From positions 791,551 to 855,550 of the forward strand of contig CP064998.1 of the NCBI GenBank assembly GCA_016700035.1: a stretch of 64,000 nucleotides of DNA. Direction: 5' to 3'. The stretch comes from a bacterium. Its GTDB lineage: Bacteria; Patescibacteriota; Saccharimonadia; CAILAD01; GCA-016700035. Below, piece after piece: positions 5,312 to 40,171 of this stretch; position 1 is the first letter of the stretch; every line of letters begins with the position of its first letter. Under the pieces are notes generated by a model. The model saw only the letters and a list, made by a program, of their open reading frames with translations, ran no database searches and was not told the DNA's origin. The position numbers were made by a program, and so were the translations under genes.

Positions 5312-6364
5312 CTATTCCTCCATATTTAAGGAAATTTGTTGATCTGAGTTTAAATTTGTATCTGGTGGGGTTAAGCCTAAATGCCTATACCCTTTCTCGC
5401 TCACCATCCGTCCGCGTGAAGTTCGCCTCAAAAGACCCTGCTGAATAAGATATGGCTCAACCACATCTTCGATAGTTTGTCGTTCTTCCGAAAGTGCTGC
5501 AGCCAAAGCTTCCACTCCAGCTGGACCACCATTATAGTGATCAATTAAAGTTTGTAAGACTCGACGATCGGCGCTATCCAGACCGAGGGCGTCAACCTCT
5601 AATAGGGCAAAGGTTGCATCCAGCACATCTCTATTAACTACAGCATCATTATGTACTTCGGCATAATCACGAATTCGGCGGATCAATCTATTTGCAATAC
5701 GTGGCGTTAATCTTGAACGAGCAGCTAACTCAACCAAGGCATCATCTTCCATGCGGATTTTCATCAAACGAGCGGTACGGGATAAAATTCTTGCTATCTC
5801 GTCGGGAGAATAAAACTCTAGGCGCTGAACTATCCCAAATCTATCTCTTAACGGCCCCGATAACGCCCCAAACCGAGTAGTTGCACCAATGATGGTAATT
5901 GGCGCCAACTCTAGCCGTAGCGACTGCGCTGATGGTCCCTTGCCCAACATAATATCAATCACATAATCCTCCATCGCCGGATATAAAATTTCTTCTACAA
6001 TTCTACTTAGACGATGAATTTCATCAATAAACAACACATCCCCAGCATTGAGATTTGTTAATAAGCTCGCCAGATCTCCAGCTCGCTCAATGGCTGGACC
6101 AGAGGTAATCTTTAGCTGGCCACCCAACTCGCTTGCAATAATGTGGGCTAGGGTTGTCTTACCTAGCCCTGGTGGTCCATACAAAAGCACATGGTCTAGC
6201 GCATCGCCACGTTTTTTTGATGCCGCTATCGCCAACCGCAGTGCGTCAATTGCTTGGCGCTGACCGATATATTCATCAAAATTAGCCGGACGAAGTGACT
6301 CCTCAAACTGAGTCTCCTCACTACTGGCGTCTGGTCGCACTAAATCATCCTGTCGCTCTATCAT
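5312..6364 (-). CDS. ruvB: Holliday junction branch-migration helicase RuvB
   Basis: Walker [16 protein letters not shown] and AAA+ RuvB-like N, M and C domains. It overlaps ruvA by 4 nt. Confidence 0.92.
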
Positions 6365-6918
6365 GAACCAATCTCCCGCAAAGCTTGTCGAACCCGCTCA
6401 CCCGTATCGAGGTCAGTGGCAACCCCGCTTAGGGCTGCTTGAGCTTGATCAGCCCGATAACCTAGCTGAACCAAGGCTTGCAAAGCTGGGTCGGCAGTTT
6501 TTGTAACTGGTTGATCACTAGCGACTAGCTTGCCTCTCAGTTCTAGAATTATCCGCTGAGCTGTCTTACGCCCCACTCCACTTACCTGACTGAGCCGAGT
6601 AGTCTCTTCAGAATCAATAATGGTCATCAAAGTTTCGCCATCGTATAATGAAACAATTGCATGGGCCATCTTAGCACCAACTCCGTTAACACTCACTAAC
6701 TTGCGGTACAATTGCCTCTCACTTTCAACCCGAAAGCCGTACAGATCATAGCTATCCTCACGGATATTTTCAGATATATAAAATCCAACTTTCGCACCAA
6801 TCTCCAATTCGGCAACATCGCGCACTGGTACGATCAGCTCATAACCAACGCCATGCACGTTCAATATAATGCGATCATAATCACGGGTGGCAACTACCCC
6901 CTCCAAGTGCGCTATCAT
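6361..6918 (-). CDS. ruvA: Holliday junction DNA-binding protein RuvA
   Basis: The conserved start MIAHLEGVV lies 50 codons inside the longer ORF that extends to 7068. I judge that upstream extension spurious (Cys/Trp-rich). The C-terminal half contains HhH motifs. Confidence 0.85.
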
Positions 6919-8173: not shown

Positions 8174-8864
8174 ACATCAGCTCCTCGTAACCACCGGCGT
8201 ATTTAGGGTTCTTCTCCCGAAACTCCGCCCCATGACCAATATTGGTCACGATTGGGCGATTTTCAGCGCAGAAAGGGCAGTTTTTAGACGAATAGTTTTT
8301 CACATCCAATTGCCAAGCCACATGCAGCACGGGCACGTCGAGCGAGCGAACTGTTACGGCACGTGTTCGATTCACCATACAAGCCACACCAACCACCTCT
8401 CCACCAGCTTGCCGTACAGCCTTAATGGTTTTCTTGATTGATTTTGCTGTCGTCATCACATCTTCAACTACTAGCACTCGCTTGCCACGTACAGTGCTCG
8501 CAAAACGTGAGCGCTCAAGGGCAAACTGCTTACCGTCCTTATCGGCCCACACCGCCTGCACATAAATGCCTTGAGCGATCAAGCGCTGCGACAGACCACC
8601 AATCAGATATACCCCACCGGTAGCCGGCCCCACCACAACCTCTGGATGACGCTCCGGACTAGAACTACTGAAAAAACAGTCTTTCCAAAAGTCATAGAAG
8701 TAGGCCATCCGTGAGGCGTCTGGGAAGATACGATCAGCATTAAGATAAATCTCAGCGTGATCGCCCGAGCTCAAGACCAAATGACTCCCCTCAATCACAG
8801 CTTTTGTCGCTGTAAAATGATTAACCGCCCACTGCTCGCTTCGAGCAATCGCTGGCAATTTCAT
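8163..8864 (-). CDS. Phosphoribosyltransferase (orotate PRTase-like) with C-terminal Cys-containing extension
   Basis: PRPP-binding motif RVLVVEDVMTTAKSIKKTIKAVRQAGGEVVGVACMVNR. An extra C-terminal ~40 aa carries CPFC. Confidence 0.6.
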   Translation of the reverse strand: MKLPAIARSEQWAVNHFTATKAVIEGSHLVLSSGDHAEIYLNADRIFPDASRMAYFYDFWKDCFFSSSSPERHPEVVVGPATGGVYLIGGLSQRLIAQGIYVQAVWADKDGKQFALERSRFASTVRGKRVLVVEDVMTTAKSIKKTIKAVRQAGGEVVGVACMVNRTRAVTVRSLDVPVLHVAWQLDVKNYSSKNCPFCAENRPIVTNIGHGAEFREKNPKYAGGYEELMFDD

Positions 8865-11794: not shown

Positions 11795-11871
11795 GGGCCC
11801 ATAGCTCAGTTGGTTAGAGCGACAGCCTTTTAAGCTGTGCGTCCTGGGTTCGAATCCCAGTGGGCCCTCCA
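11795..11871 (+). tRNA. tRNA-Lys (anticodon UUU), CCA encoded
   Basis: Cloverleaf read by hand. Acceptor stem GGGCCCA/TGGGCCC, D arm agctcagttggttagagc, anticodon loop cuUUUaa, T arm gggttcgaatccc. Confidence 0.85.
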
Positions 11872-11877
11872 ATTAAA

Positions 11878-11901
11878 GGCCACCCTTCATGGGTGGTTTT
11901 T
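11878..11901 (+). terminator. Rho-independent terminator after tRNA-Lys
   Basis: The hairpin ggccaccc-ttca-tgggtgg is followed by ttttt. Confidence 0.55.
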
Positions 11902-12019
11902 AATTGGAAAATTCTTTGATTTGAATCCAGTAGCCCAAAGAGCTGGGTTCGGCGTAGCAAAGACACGCGCAGGGGCTTGCTCCGAGCATGACTGCGGCAA
12001 AAAAGACGCTTGCGCCGCT

Positions 12020-12037
12020 ATCCCAGTGGGCCCTCCA
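12020..12037 (+). repeat. 18-bp direct repeat of the tRNA-Lys 3' end (atcccagtgggccctcca), att-like scar
   Basis: An exact copy of tRNA positions 11854-11871 lies 148 bp downstream. Confidence 0.6.
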
Positions 12038-12114
12038 GTTTGACCTTATTACCCCCCAGCAGGAATACTGTAACTAAAGAGCCGCTACGGCTCTTTTTTT
12101 GTTATCATTAGGCC

Positions 12115-12540
12115 ATGGTGTCCAAGACTAAAAAATTCAGTTCAAAACAGCTTTTGTTTCAAGAGGTATTTGTGGGTACGCTCGTTTATATAACAGTGCT
12201 TGGTTTTTTTAGTGACTATACTGACGTTGTTTATGTAAAGAGTTTTTCAACGATATTCTTTGCTAGTATTGTGCTAGAAATACTTACCTATCTGGCGTTT
12301 CAAGTAAAAGATCTTATTATAGCCTGGCTGAAAGACCGCACAGGAAGTTTGTATCGTATGCTCATGTTCTTTTGCGTGTGGCTTGTAATGTTCTTGTCTA
12401 AGTTTATCTTCATTTGGGTACTAGACTTTTTATTTGGTAACTATATAAAAATCAATGGTTTCTTCGGAATATTACTGGTAGTTTTATGCGTAACTATTAT
12501 TCATAAGCTTGCATATAAAATCTTTATTAAGCTTGGATGA
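12115..12540 (+). CDS. Hypothetical polytopic membrane protein
   Basis: 141 aa with about 4 TM helices, AT-rich. Confidence 0.4.
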   Translation: MVSKTKKFSSKQLLFQEVFVGTLVYITVLGFFSDYTDVVYVKSFSTIFFASIVLEILTYLAFQVKDLIIAWLKDRTGSLYRMLMFFCVWLVMFLSKFIFIWVLDFLFGNYIKINGFFGILLVVLCVTIIHKLAYKIFIKLG

Positions 12541-12783
12541 GTAGCAATATAGGATTCTGAGATAGTTTGGAGTCTACTGTTATACCGTCTGCAAAGTTGT
12601 TGTCTTGAGCATACACTTTGTGAGAGTCGGTAAATATTGCAAAAAGCCCAAAGCTAAGTACCGCAAATATAATACTTAGCTGAACTAGATGTTTTTTAGT
12701 ATCTAGTGACAAGCTTACTAAGCATGATTATAGCGTGAGTGGTATAGAAGAATAATTAAGTAAAATAACTAATATTCTAATTG

Positions 12784-13689
12784 TTACGCGCCAATTTTAT
12801 CGCGACGACGCTTGCCTTTGGCGCGCTCCACCACAAAATCTATCATTTTAGAGGCAATGTCCTCACCCGTCTGAGCCTCAATCCCTTCCAAACCTGGTGA
12901 GCTATTTACCTCTAGCACTAATGGCCCACGCCGAGACCGAATAAGATCTACTCCAGCAATCGAAAGACCCAGTGTTGAGGCAGCCTTGAGGGCAACATTT
13001 TGCTCTTTTTTAGAGAGCTCAACTGGCGTTGACTCGCCACCGCGGTGCAAATTTGACCGAAACTCACCTTCCTGGCCCTTGCGCATCATCGCACCAACAA
13101 TCTTATCGCCCACTACAATCACTCGGATATCTGCACCATCAGCTTCTTCAATAAATTCTTGCAAAATAAAGTTGGCATTGATCGAGTTAAAGGCTTCAAT
13201 TACCGACTTAGCAGCTTTTTTAGTTTCTGCTAGCACCACACCTTTACCTTGCGTAGATTCTAAAAGCTTTACTACCACTGGCGCACCACCAACCAGCTCT
13301 AGAAGCTCTGCGGCATCCGATGTTTGAGAAGCAAAAACAGTTTTTGGAATACCCACACCAGCGCGAGCCAAGAGTTGCATGGAACGCAACTTATCACGCG
13401 AGCGCACCAGGGCCAGTGAGCTCGTGGCGGTATAGGCTCGCATCATCTCAAACTGGCGCAATACAGCCGCTCCATAGTTGGTGTAACGGGCGGCAATACG
13501 TGGAACCACCGCCTCCACCTCATCTACCGAGCGACCCTCCCAGTGTACCGAAGGGTTGCGACTCTCAATTGCCATGTAGGCCTTGGTGTAATCAACCACC
13601 ACCGGTGTATGACCCTTGGCATTTGCGGCCTCCACTAAGCGACGGGTTGAGTAATTTTTTCTACCGGCTGATAAAATAGCAATTTTCAT
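12784..13689 (-). CDS. rimK: RimK-family alpha-L-glutamate ligase (ATP-grasp)
   Basis: N-terminus MKIAILS. ATP-grasp motifs VVVKLLESTQGKGVVL and DLIRS..GPLVLEVNSSPGLEGIE. Confidence 0.85.
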   Translation of the reverse strand: MKIAILSAGRKNYSTRRLVEAANAKGHTPVVVDYTKAYMAIESRNPSVHWEGRSVDEVEAVVPRIAARYTNYGAAVLRQFEMMRAYTATSSLALVRSRDKLRSMQLLARAGVGIPKTVFASQTSDAAELLELVGGAPVVVKLLESTQGKGVVLAETKKAAKSVIEAFNSINANFILQEFIEEADGADIRVIVVGDKIVGAMMRKGQEGEFRSNLHRGGESTPVELSKKEQNVALKAASTLGLSIAGVDLIRSRRGPLVLEVNSSPGLEGIEAQTGEDIASKMIDFVVERAKGKRRRDKIGA

Positions 13690-15170
13690 GATTTGGTAAT
13701 CTCCCCTCGGGATAATTCAACATTAACTAAATAATTTCCACGCAGTAATTTGCGTCCCAGAAGCATCGGTACCTTCTGACTCTGGCGATTTGTCAGAGTA
13801 AACTGAGTTTGATGATCCCGGCCTTGGATACGTACAATTGTACGTATCTTATAGCGATCTTGCCACTGTCCAGTTGAACTTTTTACCTGCACCGTCTCAA
13901 AATCACGACTCACGCACTCCACAAAATCCTCCGAATGGGTTCGGCCATCCACAAAATGCGGTACACGAAAGTGTAGCTCATCACCCCGCTTGGTGTGCTT
14001 AATATGAATACCCTCAGCGTGTAAGGCACCACTATATGCGCCAGTATCTGTCTTAGCAGATACACCCGTAATACCAAATTCTGGCAGGCCAACCACCTCA
14101 ATTCTACCAATAACTTTTTTAGGCAGACTAGCTGATGCCTGGCGATGATAGCGCTTTGCCACCGTTCGGCGCAAATAGTTAACAAAACCAGGAATATTTT
14201 CTTCAATATAGGCACCGGTTACAATTTGTGAACCCTGATTGACCTCCAAGATTGCCTTGCGCCCGGTATTCTTATCAAGAATTACATCCACACCGGCCAC
14301 TGATAAATTCATCACCTGCGCAGAACGAGTAGCTAATTCTAGCATTCTAGACGACACTTTGTTATGCGCAACAAGCTGGGCTGATCCGCCAGCTGAGGTG
14401 TTATTTAGATGACTTTTACCATCACCCACACGATGAATCACCATACCCGGCTCGCCACCATAAACTTGCACACGCCAATCGCCATCATTAGCAACATAAT
14501 CTTGAATAAGCCAATCTACTGCACTACCTTGGGTTAGAGTACGCCCCGCTTGTGCAGTCTTGATTAAGTGATTATCCCGTCCTTTTTGCCCGATTGTAGA
14601 CTTAATAATTGCTGGATAACTCACCCACTCACTCTTCAGTACAGCTTGAATATGTTTAGCTGGCGCATAAACCGTTCGCACCACCGGTATCCGCTCCGAC
14701 CACAACTTCAGCGTAGTTACTAGCTTATTGGCAGCCCCCTTCTGCTCAACCGCCTCATCGATAAACGGCACACCCTTAGCGCGTAAATAAATTGCCAGTG
14801 CGGCAGCTACATCCGGCATACTCTCCCAGGCCTTAAAATAAACAAAGTCATAGCTAGCTGGATCTTTTTTGGTTTGCCAATCGAATACCAATGCCTTACG
14901 TTTATCAACCACAAAGACCAGATCTTCAAGTGCCATCACCTCGGCTTCAGCGAAATCAAAATTACCATATTTTTTTAAACGCGTAATAAAACCAGCGCCA
15001 CGAGTTGATGTTAGGCTAGCTTCCCGCGTAAAGATAAACAAGATCTTCGGATTATTGAGGGCTGGCTTAACCACGTTGAGCTCCTTCTTCTGCTGCACGT
15101 TGCATGTACTCAAGTAGCACCTGCATTTTTTGTTCGGGGTCAGCACCCAACTGAATGGCTGGGGCCTCAT
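13686..15170 (-). CDS. ATP-grasp ligase fused to C-terminal RimK-associated (retropepsin-like) protease domain
   Basis: The central ATP-grasp region has VAGVDVILDKNTGRKAILEVNQGSQI. The C-terminal ~150 aa (IGRIEVVGLPEFGITGVSAKTDTGAYSGALHA...VNVEL) matches the RimK-associated protease domain family. The 5' end overlaps the upstream gene by 104 nt, so the true start is uncertain. Confidence 0.6.
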   Translation of the reverse strand: MRPQPFSWVLTPNKKCRCYLSTCNVQQKKELNVVKPALNNPKILFIFTREASLTSTRGAGFITRLKKYGNFDFAEAEVMALEDLVFVVDKRKALVFDWQTKKDPASYDFVYFKAWESMPDVAAALAIYLRAKGVPFIDEAVEQKGAANKLVTTLKLWSERIPVVRTVYAPAKHIQAVLKSEWVSYPAIIKSTIGQKGRDNHLIKTAQAGRTLTQGSAVDWLIQDYVANDGDWRVQVYGGEPGMVIHRVGDGKSHLNNTSAGGSAQLVAHNKVSSRMLELATRSAQVMNLSVAGVDVILDKNTGRKAILEVNQGSQIVTGAYIEENIPGFVNYLRRTVAKRYHRQASASLPKKVIGRIEVVGLPEFGITGVSAKTDTGAYSGALHAEGIHIKHTKRGDELHFRVPHFVDGRTHSEDFVECVSRDFETVQVKSSTGQWQDRYKIRTIVRIQGRDHQTQFTLTNRQSQKVPMLLGRKLLRGNYLVNVELSRGEITKS

Positions 15171-16008
15171 TAATTTCTAAAATAATATGCTCACCGGTAT
15201 TTTTATTAATCAATAAATCTAACCCACAAAACTGCTCTCGACCAACCAAGCGAGCCGCCTTCAGGCTATCCTCGCGTTGCTTCGGGGTTAGAACAGATGC
15301 GTCAAAAATACTAGCTTCGGCATTTTGCGAGGTATTATTTAAATGCGTATCTTCAGCAATCCTAGCTCGCTTCATCACCAGCTTGATCTCTCCACCTAAT
15401 ATAAGTACTCGATAATCAAACTCATTGGCAATAAATGGCTGTGCAATGAATGTCACGCTAGAGTGTTCAGCGAGTTTGGCTTTGAGTTCAGCGTAGCTGT
15501 GGATTAAGAAATTGTTATTACCACCAAAATCCTGAATACTTTTTAGTATAAAAGGATACGAATATGGTGGGTTTTTCCTAAAAAGCTTGCGCAACTCACG
15601 GGCCGAAGTTGAAATACCATCCGGCAGTGGCAAATTTTGGTTTACCATGAGGGCCTGCTGACCAATTTTAGACAGTGGTGTGAATCGCCCAACTTCTGGA
15701 GTAAAATATGAGATTTGACAATAATCTAGATATTTAGCTGCTACCAAAGCCTGCTGCTGACGCTTGTGAAATAGCTCAAAATACACCAAATCAAACTCCG
15801 CCAAATCCATACCAGTCATTGATTCAATAATTTTTAAGCTATTGTTTTTAAAGCAAATCTGTAAATCTTTCAAGGAACCTTGAAAAAGTTGCATGCCAAA
15901 GTCACCCGCTCGTTCGGCTAACGGGTTAAATAATAGCTTGTAGTAGCCAGTTTTGTGGCTCCTAAAGCTATAAAGAATTAGTACTTTATAGGGCTTTTTT
16001 GTAGTCAT
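15067..16008 (-). CDS. RimK-like ATP-grasp ligase, third paralog
   Basis: GLDLLINKNTGEHIILEINEAPAIQ and DYRVLILGGE are ATP-grasp B and C subdomain motifs. 313 aa. Confidence 0.65.
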   Translation of the reverse strand: MTTKKPYKVLILYSFRSHKTGYYKLLFNPLAERAGDFGMQLFQGSLKDLQICFKNNSLKIIESMTGMDLAEFDLVYFELFHKRQQQALVAAKYLDYCQISYFTPEVGRFTPLSKIGQQALMVNQNLPLPDGISTSARELRKLFRKNPPYSYPFILKSIQDFGGNNNFLIHSYAELKAKLAEHSSVTFIAQPFIANEFDYRVLILGGEIKLVMKRARIAEDTHLNNTSQNAEASIFDASVLTPKQREDSLKAARLVGREQFCGLDLLINKNTGEHIILEINEAPAIQLGADPEQKMQVLLEYMQRAAEEGAQRG

Positions 16009-16093
16009 GCTTATAGTAACTTTAGAAGACCATAATTATACTATATTTTTATACTATTGTCCAGATTAAATAGCCCTAATTGAGCCAGGAATA

Positions 16094-16654
16094 CTATTTC
16101 TTTTTCTTGCCCTTTTTACCTTTTTTATCATCATCTTCTTTTGTTTTTCGCTTCCAGACCGTAATTAAGATAAGCCAGCCAGTCATTGCAGTGAGTAGCC
16201 ACAATCGGTTTTCAGCCGCTAGAGCAATGAGATTATATTCTTCCAGCACTTTAGTTGATATATCATGCGCCAAATAACTCTGCGTATAACCAATTAGGGT
16301 GGCGGCAGTTAAAAACGCCAGTACAAAACTTCGCAAGCCAAATCGCCCCCCCACTGAAGGCGTTTTTCCAAGCGATAAGCCAACCGTCACGACCAACAAT
16401 ACTACTAACTGCACAAAAGCTGCATCAATCGGACCATTAATGGACGAATCGAGCTGGCGAGCTAAAAAACCACCTAGCTGATCGGCCACAAAAAAACCCG
16501 CTAAAAGGGCCGTGGCAATTCGCTTAAGCCGGCCTTCACCAAATATAAAAGCCAGTAAAAAAAATATACCAATAACAGCAAAAACGTAAATATTTCCATC
16601 AATATTAAGTGGTCCAAACTGCATATGCTTAAGATTATACACCTCCCCAAACAA
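16094..16654 (-). CDS. Membrane protein with poly-lysine C-terminal tail (KRKTKEDDDKKGKKGKKKK)
   Basis: Four TM helices. The tail is encoded by an A/T-rich stretch at 16094-16150. Confidence 0.45.
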   Translation of the reverse strand: MFGEVYNLKHMQFGPLNIDGNIYVFAVIGIFFLLAFIFGEGRLKRIATALLAGFFVADQLGGFLARQLDSSINGPIDAAFVQLVVLLVVTVGLSLGKTPSVGGRFGLRSFVLAFLTAATLIGYTQSYLAHDISTKVLEEYNLIALAAENRLWLLTAMTGWLILITVWKRKTKEDDDKKGKKGKKKK

Positions 16655-17201: not shown

Positions 17202-18113
17202 TTATTTGAAAAAGCCTTTTTTCTTAGAAGCTTTTCGATATTCTTCCAAAGCCTGCTTCTGCTTATGAGAAAGCTTATGAGGTATTTCAACTAACACCTC
17301 TACCAAATGATCGCCATGTCGATGAGTACCAGGAATTGGCATACCTTTTCCGGTTAGTTTAAGGGTTTTACCAGGTTGAGTGCCAGCTGGAACTTTAATT
17401 GTAATTTCACCTTCCAACGTTTTTATATCTATCTCCGTACCCAGCGCCGCATCGACCATATCAATCTTTACTCGCGACACCAGACTAGCGCCGTGCCTCT
17501 CAAAGCCTTTAGGCTCACGCACATGAATTTCAACATACAGATCACCGCGTGATCCACCCTGCCCATGCTCCCCTTTGCCAGCCATACGAATTGATTGGCC
17601 ATTATCAATACCGGCCGGTATTTTTACTTTAACCGTCTCGCTCTTTCGCTCACCTGTCGTTCGATCCATGACGCGCAAATTTAGCTCTCGTGTGGTGCCT
17701 TTTACCGCCTCATCAAAATCAATCGCTAACGCCACTTGCACATCTCGTGGTCGATTGCGCATACCACCAAAAATTTCAGAAAAAATATCACCAAAGCCAC
17801 CAGCCCCCGAGAAATCGAACTGCACACCATCAAATCCTCCGCCAAACGGATTACCTCCAGCAAAGGGGTTGCCTCCTGGTCCACCAGCGTTGGCGGCACC
17901 AGCTGAATGGCCAAACTGGTCGTAAGCTGCCCGCTTCTGTTCATCCGAGAGAACTTCGTAAGCTTCTCCTGCTTCCTTAAACTTCTTCTCATCACCACCC
18001 TCACGGTCTGGATGATACTTGAGGGCAGCTTTCTTAAATGCCTTCTTTATATCATCTTGGCTAGCTCCTTTTTGGACACCCAAAATATCATAATAATCAC
18101 GTTTGCTAGTCAT
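17202..18113 (-). CDS. dnaJ: J-domain co-chaperone DnaJ, class II (no zinc-finger domain)
   Basis: J domain YYDILGV...HPD. A G/F-rich region and two C-terminal substrate-binding domains. It lacks CxxCxGxG repeats. Confidence 0.8.
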
Positions 18114-18937
18114 TTTTTATCCTCACGCTTTTTAGGTTTTTTAGTGGGTTTACGCGCTGGTTCAATAGCTGGCTTTTCTGGTTGTGGCACCACCATGGTT
18201 GGCAACATGCTAGCCAGCCGAGAGCCTGTAAAAACTGATGGTGCGCTAGATTGCGATCTATGATGGTGCTCTGCATGGGGCTTGCTCTGTTCTGGGTGGT
18301 TAATCTTCTGCTCGGCTGGCTTGGCTTTTTTAGGTGCTGGGGCTAACACTTCTGCCGCGTGCCTAGAAGTAATAGTATAGCGCTTATCAGCCGTACGGGC
18401 CAAGGCAGCATTACTCACACCACGAAAACCAATGTATACCAGCTCAGCACCACGTCTTTTCGACTCTAATACTGCCGGCATTAGATCACCATCAGAGGAA
18501 AGCAAAACAAGCCGAACATTATCACCAGAAGCTCGAATCATATCGGTTGCAATAGTGACATCCACACCCTTCTCCACAAGCACCGGCTCGCGATGACCAC
18601 ATTCTACGCAGGGTTTGCCATCGCGCACCAAAAGATGCCCAGCTTCGATGTAATCTACTTTTTGCGATTCCAGTACTTTACGCCACGCTTCAGCATCAGC
18701 AGCATAGCGCTCGGTGCGCTCCTTTAGTTCTGGTGTTTTATCAATGATATGAATTTTTGAGGCATAATAGCTAATACTTGCAGTACGAATGCTTGGATCT
18801 TGCAAGATATTTTCAAATAACTTGCGAATATTTACACGAGAAAGCTCATCGCGATAGCGGATTAGCTTGCGTGACGCCAGCGAATCACGTAGTTGGTAGA
18901 CAAAGTTTTCACCATCAATAAAAAAGATTGTTTTCAT
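18110..18937 (-). CDS. NYN (LabA/PIN-like) domain protein with basic low-complexity tail
   Basis: FIDGENF...[10 protein letters not shown]...[10 protein letters not shown] matches the NYN nuclease fold signature. The C-terminus is KPAEQK...[10 protein letters not shown]. Confidence 0.6.
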
Positions 18938-22554: not shown

Positions 22555-22581
22555 TTAGCACTAGCAACATTAGAGTGCTAG
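22555..22581 (-). promoter_or_regulatory. CIRCE operator 1 (ttagcacta-N9-gagtgctag)
   Basis: Matches the CIRCE consensus TTAGCACTC-N9-GAGTGCTAA at 16 of 18 positions. About 125 bp upstream of hrcA. Confidence 0.8.
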
Positions 22582-22600
22582 TACTTCTATATTAGTCTTG

Positions 22601-22627
22601 TTGGCACTCGCATGTCAAGAGTGCTAA
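22601..22627 (-). promoter_or_regulatory. CIRCE operator 2 (ttggcactc-N9-gagtgctaa)
   Basis: 17 of 18 match to consensus. It overlaps the stop codon of the upstream gene. Confidence 0.7.
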
Positions 22628-34784: not shown

Positions 34785-34861
34785 TGGTGGCTGCGGGTGG
34801 ATTTGAACCACCGACCTCTGGCTTATGAGTCCATTGCTCTGACCAACTGAGCTACGCAGCC
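34785..34861 (-). tRNA. tRNA with CAU anticodon (elongator Met or lysidine-modified Ile2), CCA encoded
   Basis: The reverse complement gives acceptor GGCTGCG/CGCAGCC, D arm gctcagttggtcagagc, anticodon loop cuCAUaa and T arm ggtggttcaaatccacc. The anticodon stem has two A·G mismatches, so the identity is tentative. Confidence 0.7.
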
Positions 34862-35775: not shown

Positions 35776-35851
35776 TGGTAGCGGGGGCAGGATTCGAACC
35801 TGCGACCTTCGGGTTATGAGCCCGACGAGCTGCCAGCTGCTCCACCCCGCG
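35776..35851 (-). tRNA. Initiator tRNA-fMet (CAU)
   Basis: The reverse complement CGCGGGGTGGAGCAGCTGGCAGCTCGTCGGGCTCATAACCCGAAGGTCGCAGGTTCGAATCCTGCCCCCGCTACCA closely matches bacterial initiator tRNA. It has the 1:72 mismatch and three GC pairs in the anticodon stem. Confidence 0.85.
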
Positions 35852-40095: not shown

Positions 40096-40171
40096 GGGCC
40101 CGTAGCTCAGTGGTTAGAGCAGTCGACTCATAATCGATTGGCCGCTGGTTCAAATCCAGCCGGGCCCACCA
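40096..40171 (+). tRNA. tRNA with CAU anticodon (Met elongator or Ile2), CCA encoded
   Basis: Acceptor GGGCCCG/CGGGCCC, anticodon stem-loop gtcga-cuCAUaa-tcgat, T arm gctggttcaaatccagc. Confidence 0.85.

Follow-up and report, generated by a model that had tools for sequence, protein, structure and literature searches.

Polyglutamylation of ribosomal protein S6 at its C-terminus is the only case in bacteria of a protein tail extension that has been investigated to date (PMC11957791). The described systems closest to the locus reported here are the RimK-RimB system of Pseudomonas (RimABK; PMC4741518, PMC7343187, PMC11957791, PMC10092738); the RimBK hybrid of Desulfotalea psychrophila (DP2392), Flavobacteriales and Rhodobacterales, which joins a RimB-like protease to an ATP-grasp ligase in a single polypeptide (PMC11957791); and RloABC of Pseudomonas aeruginosa, with a retropepsin-like peptidase, a RimK-like ATP-grasp protein (RloC) and a membrane protein in one locus (PMC12239564). 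The rim genes have been reported as accessory and patchily distributed (PMC11957791). We analysed a 64,000-nt stretch of contig CP064998.1 (assembly GCA_016700035.1), called the window below; coordinates are positions in the window unless a locus of a relative (L number) is named. A block of three ATP-grasp ligase genes in the window comprises G1, G2 fused to a RimB-like protease domain (G2::RimB), and rimK. G1 and G2 belong to a Saccharibacteria-specific ligase family for which we use a name of our own, GraspX. We consider it fairly probable (about 0.6) that the block is a Saccharibacteria Rim system for the tail of S6, or for another C-terminal tail, enlarged by the lineage-specific GraspX ligases. 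New with respect to the described systems are the separate ligase family with its one to three copies, the repeated fusion of this family to a RimB-like domain in both orders, and the lineage-wide fixation of the module beside a chaperone operon in ultra-small genomes.

ORF (open reading frame) calling placed the genes for a membrane protein, G1, G2::RimB and RimK all on the minus strand, in that order of transcription (Table 1). We took the GTG at 15074 rather than the ATG at 15170 as the start of G2, because an AGGAG lies 7 nt 5' of it, because it overlaps the G1 stop as GTGGTTAA, because the database protein P0001 is 100% identical across exactly the 462 aa of G2, and because about 120 full-length G2 homologs measure 447–479 aa. 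The 494-aa version from the ATG would overlap G1 by 104 nt. The rimK start shares an ATGA overlap with the G2 stop, and the RimB-like domain ends at this overlap, that is, it is encoded directly beside rimK. The overlapping start and stop codons indicate that the three ligase genes are translationally coupled. They probably form a transcription unit of their own, apart from the membrane-protein gene, which is separated from G1 by 85 nt; the top-scoring sigma-70-like site between 11.7 and 18.3 kb lies inside this gap. The original prediction, of three divergent, co-oriented and translationally coupled RimK-like paralogs with a retropepsin-like domain in the middle one, was thus right about the genes, their coupling and the domain, and right about divergence for G1 and G2; the third gene is a textbook rimK. 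Its premise that RimK normally stands alone did not hold, since pairs of rimB with rimK and hybrids of RimB with RimK have been characterised and are common (PMC11957791), and the membrane-protein gene, which it had placed after the ligases, actually lies upstream (5') of them.

Table 1. Features of the ligase block and its surroundings in the window
Feature	Position	Strand	Basis or remark
Multi-pass membrane protein, 176 aa, Lys-rich C-terminal tail KRKTKEDDDKKGKKGKKKK	16624 (ATG)..16094	-	ORF; TTG 16654 alternative start
Promoter-like site TGGACA-17-TATAAT, 11/12 match	16063..16035	-	Consensus match only
G1, divergent ATP-grasp ligase, first operon gene, 313 aa	16008..15067	-	ORF call
G2::RimB fusion, 462 aa	15074..13686	-	GTG start, ORF inspection
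GraspX ATP-grasp part of G2 (N-terminal)	~15074-14130	-	
RimB-like retropepsin part of G2 (C-terminal)	~14120-13689	-	
D343-T344-G345 codons, retropepsin catalytic motif	14048-14040	-	Read from sequence
Canonical rimK, 301 aa, S6--L-glutamate ligase / poly-alpha-glutamate synthetase type	13689..12784	-	NCBIfam equivalog and Pfam
21-nt direct repeat of tRNA-Lys 3' end, att-like scar	12020..12040	+	Against 11854-11874, 20/21 match (95%)
tRNA-Lys(UUU), 3' end facing rimK	11795..11871	+	ARAGORN, Rfam

By its sequence, the product of the last gene (ORF 12784-13689) is a canonical RimK. It passed the cut-offs of the S6--L-glutamate ligase equivalog NF007764 (372.5 bits; cut-off 331) and of TIGR00768 (247 bits; cut-off 143), and it matched PF08443 at 3.7e-66 as well as PF18030 in Pfam. 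The protein aligned end to end with the solved Pseudomonas and E. coli RimK structures (7qyr, 2e-102; 4iwx, 3e-96). Compared residue by residue with 7qyr, it holds K100, K141, D187, R189, R203, R211, N213, H215, D248, E260 and N262, and it retains the substrate loop FRSNLHRGG.

G1 and G2, judged from their profile scores, belong to no characterised clade. The comparison with RimK, LysX, CofF, MptN and cyanophycin-synthetase profiles, which the original prediction had proposed, placed both below every NCBIfam cut-off for RimK, LysX, CofF, MptN, GshB and cyanophycin synthetase, and all three ligases of the window were far below the curated cut-offs for LysX, ArgX, CofF, MptN, GshB and cyanophycin synthetase. 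On the RimK models, G2 reached 84 bits with TIGR00768 (cut-off 143) and 29 bits with NF007764 (cut-off 331), and G1 matched neither. The Pfam matches were PF08443 only for G1 (2.3e-8), and PF08443 (4e-13) plus the RimB-like PF05618 (2.9e-16) for G2. G1 and G2 share 26% identity (1e-29), and each resembles RimK more weakly (2e-8 and 6e-6). A rough neighbour-joining tree resolved RimK as one tight clade and split GraspX into G1, G2, single-copy and RimB-less clades, which points to a G1/G2 duplication inside Saccharibacteria. Proteins of the G1 and G2 types carry generic database labels only, e.g. 'RimK/LysX family protein' or 'ATP-dependent zinc protease'.

The positions that bind nucleotide, Mg and phosphate were all invariant in 34 G1 and 28 G2 homologs, down to 25–40% identity. 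In RimK numbering, the invariant GraspX positions are K100, K141, G148, D187, R189, R203, N213, D248, E260 and N262. The invariant residues of the G1 homologs are K114, K156, G163, N166, Q190, D198-Y-R200, R214, R216, H222, N224, N225, D264, E278 and N280, and those of the G2 homologs are the ATP-grasp residues together with K341-D343-G345-A346. The substrate side differs from that of RimK. The RimK loop F-R-S-N-L-H-x-G-G reads H-L-N-N-T-S-A-G-(G/A) in G1 and G2 (HLNNTS), with F210 replaced by H, R211 by L and H215 by S; S7 and S14 are replaced by hydrophobic residues, and R102 is also replaced. R64 of RimK corresponds to E in G1 and to K in G2. The replacements in the N-terminal part of the alignment are to be read with caution, as identity is low there. 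S7, S14 and R64 are N-domain poly-Glu contacts in the P. aeruginosa RimK structure (PMC10092738).

AlphaFold2 models reached a mean confidence (pLDDT) of 93.7 for G1 and 88 for the G2::RimB fusion; the domain orientation in the fusion model is unreliable (predicted template modelling score 0.65) and was left uninterpreted. The best solved folds were RimK 5zct, ArgX 3vpb and LysX 3vpd for the G1 model, and RimK 5zct and 7qys for the G2 model. RimK, ArgX and LysX each take the C-terminal residue of a protein as the acceptor for the amino acid that they ligate. We read G1 and G2 as predicted active ligases whose specificity is probably unlike that of RimK. LysX and ArgX, ATP-grasp enzymes that rank high in the structural comparison for G1 and G2, attach an amino acid to a small protein, LysW, at its C-terminal Glu. 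Unlike LysX/ArgX, G1 and G2 score far under the TIGR02144 cut-off and have a different substrate loop; moreover, no small ORF is conserved with the module (no search with a LysW sequence was made), and the surroundings lack lysine or arginine pathway genes.

The protease domain of G2 matched PF05618 over residues ~319–455 at 60 bits (cut-off 27). On the RimB equivalog NF052261 it scored 72 bits against a cut-off of 200, still the best score among RimB and RloA1-3. The KTDTGA motif at 14048-14040 contains an intact DTG, and D[T/S]GA is invariant in the 28 G2 homologs; the DTG corresponds to that of RimB, in which D31 is essential (PMC11957791). The best solved match was 9g59, a P. aeruginosa retropepsin-like protease, along with 2pma.

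Among the known systems, the locus can be set beside RimABK of Pseudomonas. Both have a canonical RimK (here with E values of ~E-100 to the solved enzymes) and a DTG retropepsin domain encoded directly upstream of rimK in one operon, the S6 of relatives of the window's organism mostly ends in Glu-Glu, and a GGDEF gene beside the module in some relatives echoes the cyclic-di-GMP control by RimA. Unlike RimABK, the module has two additional ATP-grasp ligases of a separate family, its protease is fused to a ligase instead of being free-standing, and it lacks a RimA (EAL) gene; the rim genes are reported as patchy and accessory, whereas the module sits at a fixed site beside hrcA-grpE-dnaK-dnaJ throughout a lineage of the Candidate Phyla Radiation. 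The RimBK hybrid has its protease at the N-terminus of a true RimK, whereas here the protease is C-terminal, the ligase divergent, and a separate RimK follows; in related Saccharibacteria an N-terminal protease is found with GraspX (P0215), and a RimK::RimB protein occurs in L026. With RloABC the locus shares its three kinds of component, and a P. aeruginosa retropepsin-like protease (9g59) is the best solved match to the protease domain here. The Rlo peptidases, however, are secreted, whereas the domain here is fused to a cytoplasmic ligase, and RloB is an inactive transglutaminase with seven transmembrane segments, whereas the membrane protein here is small and basic-tailed, with no recognisable domain.

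The fusion family comprises at least 218 full-length cluster representatives, which, where named, come from Candidatus Saccharibacteria or Saccharimonadales. Scanning one genome per GTDB species yielded 57 loci, nearly all of them from Saccharibacteria (including Nanosynbacter, Microsaccharimonas and Saccharimonas); the few with other labels keep the Saccharibacteria synteny and are probably mis-binned. An exhaustive search with a G1 profile returned, at E<=1e-30, 707 representatives of clusters built at 50% identity. The position of the module was constant in the mapped loci (~60, sharing 26–85% identity), between hrcA-grpE-dnaK-(NYN)-dnaJ and tRNA-Lys/comEC/yebC. The arrangement of the window, G1 + G2::RimB + RimK, was seen in ~40 loci including the window itself. 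A single GraspX::RimB with RimK was present in L038, L047, L053 and L057. Separate genes for GraspX, a free RimB (140-190 aa) and RimK, in the order GraspX-RimB-RimK, were found in L042, L045, L048, L051, L052 and L055, and in L044 with two GraspX. GraspX and RimK occurred without RimB in L050, L054 and L058-L062, RimB and RimK without GraspX in L063, and a RimB::GraspX protein with its protease N-terminal, next to RimK, in L145 (P0215). GraspX lacked an adjacent RimK in two of the ~60 loci (L046, L056).

The reverse fusion P0215 (L145 6001-7326) lies at the same dnaJ-rimK site, as do those of P0295 and P0258. From these architectures, GraspX appears to have been fused to the protease at least twice, in both orders, at the same locus and in different lineages. 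Fusion in both orders argues, in Rosetta-stone fashion, for a joint action of GraspX and the protease. L026 (7377-8801) encodes a 474-aa RimK::RimB with the domain C-terminal, and its operon also holds a G2::RimB. The three-gene version is kept, at a fixed site beside the heat-shock operon, by a lineage whose genomes are ~1 Mb or smaller; retention in small genomes, a ligase family of its own and fusion of the eraser at least twice argue that the system is important for these epibionts. They also suggest that the chemistry of bacterial protein tails may go beyond poly-Glu. The searchable literature contained no paper pairing Saccharibacteria with RimK, and its sole paper on Saccharibacteria and ATP-grasp is unrelated. 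The metagenome-assembled genome L025 of a Candidatus Nanosynbacter carries the module, with G1 split at 5433-6369 into ORFs of 172 and 155 aa, either a frameshift or pseudogene or an assembly error. If cultured Nanosynbacter strains carry the module as L025 does, the question of its function is directly testable.

We turned to relatives for S6, as tblastn located none of rpsF, ssb, rpsR and rplI in the window. Among 21 close homologs of the Saccharibacteria S6 type, 16 ended in EE and 19 in E. In L040, L063 and L064 the genes rpsF-ssb-rpsR lie no more than ~3 kb away from the module. These genes sit between grpE and dnaJ beside the triple in L040, whose S6 ends in ...KKAKEE; the order is rpsF-ssb-rpsR-dnaJ-(MATCAP-like)-RimB-RimK in L063 and rpsF-ssb-rpsR-dnaJ-(391-aa protein)-G1-G2::RimB-RimK in L064. 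In L040 and in L064 a single contig carries the triple module together with an S6 that ends in EE. An S6 profile run against metagenomes mostly hit other taxa and added no rpsF-module linkage to those of L063/L065 and L064. The EE ends and the rpsF linkage in relatives fit the classical RimK substrate rule and make S6 the default acceptor; they say nothing direct about G1 and G2. Of the observations that the original prediction had named as speaking against it, half were made: the arrangement proved lineage-wide and the S6 of relatives mostly ends in Glu-Glu, but only one of the three paralogs is a canonical RimK, and the other two belong to no characterised clade.

In the Rim system that we favour, RimK would use ATP to extend the Glu-Glu C-terminus of S6 by alpha-linked glutamates and, like other RimKs, might also make free poly-alpha-glutamate. 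The RimB-like retropepsin domain would dimerise and trim the poly-Glu tails and, on the model of Pseudomonas RimB, would probably tune ligase activity too. G1 and G2 would be competent ATP-grasp ligases with a remodelled acceptor/amino-acid pocket, acting on the same tail or on a related C-terminal tail or peptide; most likely they would add something unlike what RimK adds, or act at another step, such as priming, branching or capping, with G2 physically tethered to the protease. Given a single transcript and translational coupling, the three proteins would probably be made together and may form a complex. From the comparisons above we infer that S6 is the substrate in this organism, which reactions the enzymes catalyse, that they may form a complex, and what G1 and G2 attach. 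The comparisons support the earlier proposal of a multi-enzyme module for C-terminal or peptide amino-acid ligation and trimming, with two ligases outside all characterised clades.

Several points weigh against this reading. As rpsF lies outside the window, S6 is a presumed substrate in this organism; some related S6 proteins lack the EE end (5/21), and the metagenomic S6 loci carry no taxonomic assignment. No ORF of the window contains a run of four or more Glu, and internal poly-Glu targets in the window were rejected on this ground. With 72 of the 200 bits required for RimB, the protease domain is assumed to be specific for poly-Glu. No evidence points to a particular amino acid or acceptor for G1 and G2, which could act on another protein or make a free peptide. 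Conserved adjacency says little about functional linkage when genomes are as compact and as highly syntenic as these.

The accessory genes that accompany the module in relatives vary and encode peptide- or amide-bond enzymes or signalling proteins. Homologs of the MATCAP metallopeptidase family (PF08014) adjoin it in L063 (12058-13275) and L044 (3181-4710), and ~468-aa genes of this family lie directly upstream of GraspX in L050, L054, L059 and L060, especially in RimB-less loci. This suggests that MATCAP-like peptidases are an alternative eraser in RimB-less relatives. A ~600-aa HExxH protein without a Pfam match is encoded directly 5' of G1 in L008 (3176-5032) and also in L007, L012-L014, L042 and L048; it occurs in the closest relatives of the window, and its profile (F10) is weakly linked to the MATCAP-like proteins (hhalign probability 61% only). 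Genes of ~350 aa upstream of G1 form the F19 cluster (L028 2370-3428; L029, L034, L036, L039, L040), with a similar group in L041 (3990-5045), L032, L027 and L064 (11963-13138). The pooled profile of the cluster and this group matched an ATP-grasp profile (hhalign 97%, E 1e-10), which suggests that these genes are a fourth ligase paralog in some genomes. A Mur-ligase-like protein (PF08245 + PF02875) is encoded between the membrane protein and G1 in L011 (3733-5025), peptidase C26/GATase genes occur near the module in relatives, and GGDEF-domain genes stand beside it in L145 (5110-5793), L146 (423-1106) and L005 (5903-6607). The window itself contains no MATCAP, ~600-aa HExxH, fourth ATP-grasp, Mur-ligase-like, C26/GATase or GGDEF gene.

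A bolder version, which we regard as possible but unlikely, is that GraspX extends a protein's C-terminal tail (S6 or, e.g., the basic-tailed membrane protein) with some residue that is not alpha-glutamate, or by a branch, as part of a multi-writer, multi-eraser 'tail code' in Saccharibacteria. The writers would then be RimK and one to three GraspX, and the erasers the RimB-like domain and, in relatives, the MATCAP-like and HExxH peptidases. Such a code would have a mechanistic analogue in the eukaryotic tubulin code (TTL/TTLL; MATCAP, VASH, CCP), which likewise has several ATP-grasp writers, peptidase erasers and an acidic C-terminal tail, and it would be placed to tune translation in an ultra-small epibiont genome. 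Weak matches to the TTL family PF03133 were found in 9 of the 34 G1 homologs (best 6e-6), with none in the G1 of the window, and MATCAP-family proteins flank GraspX in relatives. The HLNNTS loop of G1 and G2 may also resemble the HLTN motif of TTL. The likeness is an analogy only: the family thresholds were missed, the window has no MATCAP gene, and the substrate is not tubulin.

It is likewise doubtful, though worth weighing first among the alternatives, that the module works without a protein substrate, as a small synthetase of a peptide or poly-amino acid. RimK would make free poly-alpha-glutamate, G1 and G2 would add other residues or build a short peptide, the RimB-like domain would size or recycle the polymer, and the membrane protein would bind or export it. 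RimK is described as making free poly-alpha-Glu, stimulated by RimB (PMC11957791). The C26/GATase, Mur-ligase-like, DUF192 and fourth ATP-grasp genes of relatives would suit such a pathway, as would the polybasic-tailed membrane protein, which co-occurs with the module in ~44 loci. However, the closest folds of G1 and G2 (RimK, ArgX, LysX) act on protein C-termini, relatives combine a Glu-Glu-ended S6 with rpsF adjacency, the MATCAP-like proteins that flank GraspX in RimB-less loci are protein carboxypeptidases, and no transporter is conserved with the module.

The membrane protein bears on a further alternative. It has four or five hydrophobic segments, matched no Pfam or NCBIfam family, and carries 11 Lys in its last 20 residues, the highest count among the 71 ORFs of the window (mean 2.1). 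Its start is likely the ATG at 16624, which gives 176 aa, like the orthologs of 175-176 aa in L003, L007, L008 and L011. By its profile-profile match (probability 96.5%, E 9e-10) it belongs to a ~166-aa basic-tailed family encoded just downstream of rimK in 36 loci, often after a DUF192 gene. The DUF192 (PF02643) protein, with an N-terminal hydrophobic segment, is encoded between rimK and the basic-tailed gene in L015 (8221-8712) and in 22 other loci; the window lacks this gene. From its placement, the membrane-protein gene appears to have moved upstream of the module in the clade of the window. The Lys-tailed membrane protein beside the ligases, to which the original prediction had drawn attention, is thus a recurrent neighbour among relatives, though in a separate transcription unit. 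Its functional linkage to the module is putative, in view of the high synteny and of the Lys-rich C-termini that are common among neighbouring genes (NYN protein, DnaJ).

G1 and G2 might instead target a protein other than S6, such as this membrane protein or the neighbouring chaperones, as a RimK-independent system that shares the eraser; we think this improbable. Their substrate pocket is unlike that of RimK, the usual fusion partner of the protease is GraspX and not RimK, and the parts are separable, as L063 has no GraspX and seven loci have GraspX and RimK without RimB. The recurrence of the membrane protein and the constant place of the module beside dnaK-dnaJ would also fit. GraspX, however, hardly ever stands without an adjacent RimK (the two loci named above), the membrane protein has its own promoter region and switches side between clades, Lys-rich C-termini are common nearby, and no acceptor candidate is demonstrated. 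That G1 and G2 are pseudo-enzymes, serving RimK as non-catalytic scaffold or regulatory subunits, is very unlikely: RimK is a tetramer regulated by partner proteins (PMC10092738) and the genes are translationally coupled, but invariance of the nucleotide-, Mg- and phosphate-binding residues across homologs as distant as 25–30% identity is unexpected for pseudo-enzymes.

We dismiss as barely credible that a mobile element integrated at the tRNA-Lys carries the block as cargo, an idea to which the 21-nt repeat and the occurrence of rim genes near mobile elements in some bacteria (PMC11957791) lend some colour, because the repeat copies lie 166 nt apart with the ligase block outside them, the same gene order and tRNA-Lys recur throughout Saccharibacteria in ~60 syntenic loci, the GC content of the block equals that of its flanks, and the slot between tRNA and rimK had no Pfam match (its 141-aa ORF was scanned, its 61-aa ORF was not). 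The att-like repeat noted in the original prediction is therefore real (20/21) but does not bracket the block, and the mobility hinted at there is contradicted by synteny and normal GC. Membership of a genomic island was rejected on the same grounds. The tRNA-Lys lies between the module and comEC in 10/10 relatives tested and serves as a syntenic boundary marker.

From synteny, repeat geometry and GC content, the tRNA-Lys site looks like a small insertion hotspot beside the ligase block, and the ligase genes do not count as cargo. The slot from the tRNA-Lys 3' end to rimK measures 35 nt in L008 and as much as 1.9 kb in L003. That of the window (11872-12780) holds a terminator-like hairpin at 11868-11908 and an AT-rich (31-33% GC) gene at 12115-12540 for a 141-aa membrane protein, which has a homolog elsewhere in L039 (phmmer); the only AT-rich stretch is the 0.7 kb at 12.1-12.8 kb. 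A hidden RNA gene between the tRNA and the repeat was considered and rejected, as Rfam found none there beyond the tRNA itself. L013 has tandem tRNA-Lys(UUU) copies at the same site (8361-8437 and 8582-8658, 221 nt apart), which is consistent with recombination activity at this tRNA.

Heat-shock control of the module through CIRCE was also rejected: no CIRCE was found upstream of G1, and in the window the element is confined to the region 5' of hrcA (22555-22627). There, two CIRCE-like inverted repeats (HrcA operator) lie at 22555-22581 and 22601-22627, with 2 and 1 mismatches against a chance expectation of 0.06. Between dnaK and dnaJ, a gene for a protein with a NYN domain (predicted RNase) at 18110-18937 overlaps dnaJ by 4 nt; it encodes a Lys-rich tail and keeps the same position in several relatives. 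Farther away in the window, three tRNA-Met(CAT) genes lie within a span of 5.4 kb, at 34785-34861, 35776-35851 and 40096-40171.

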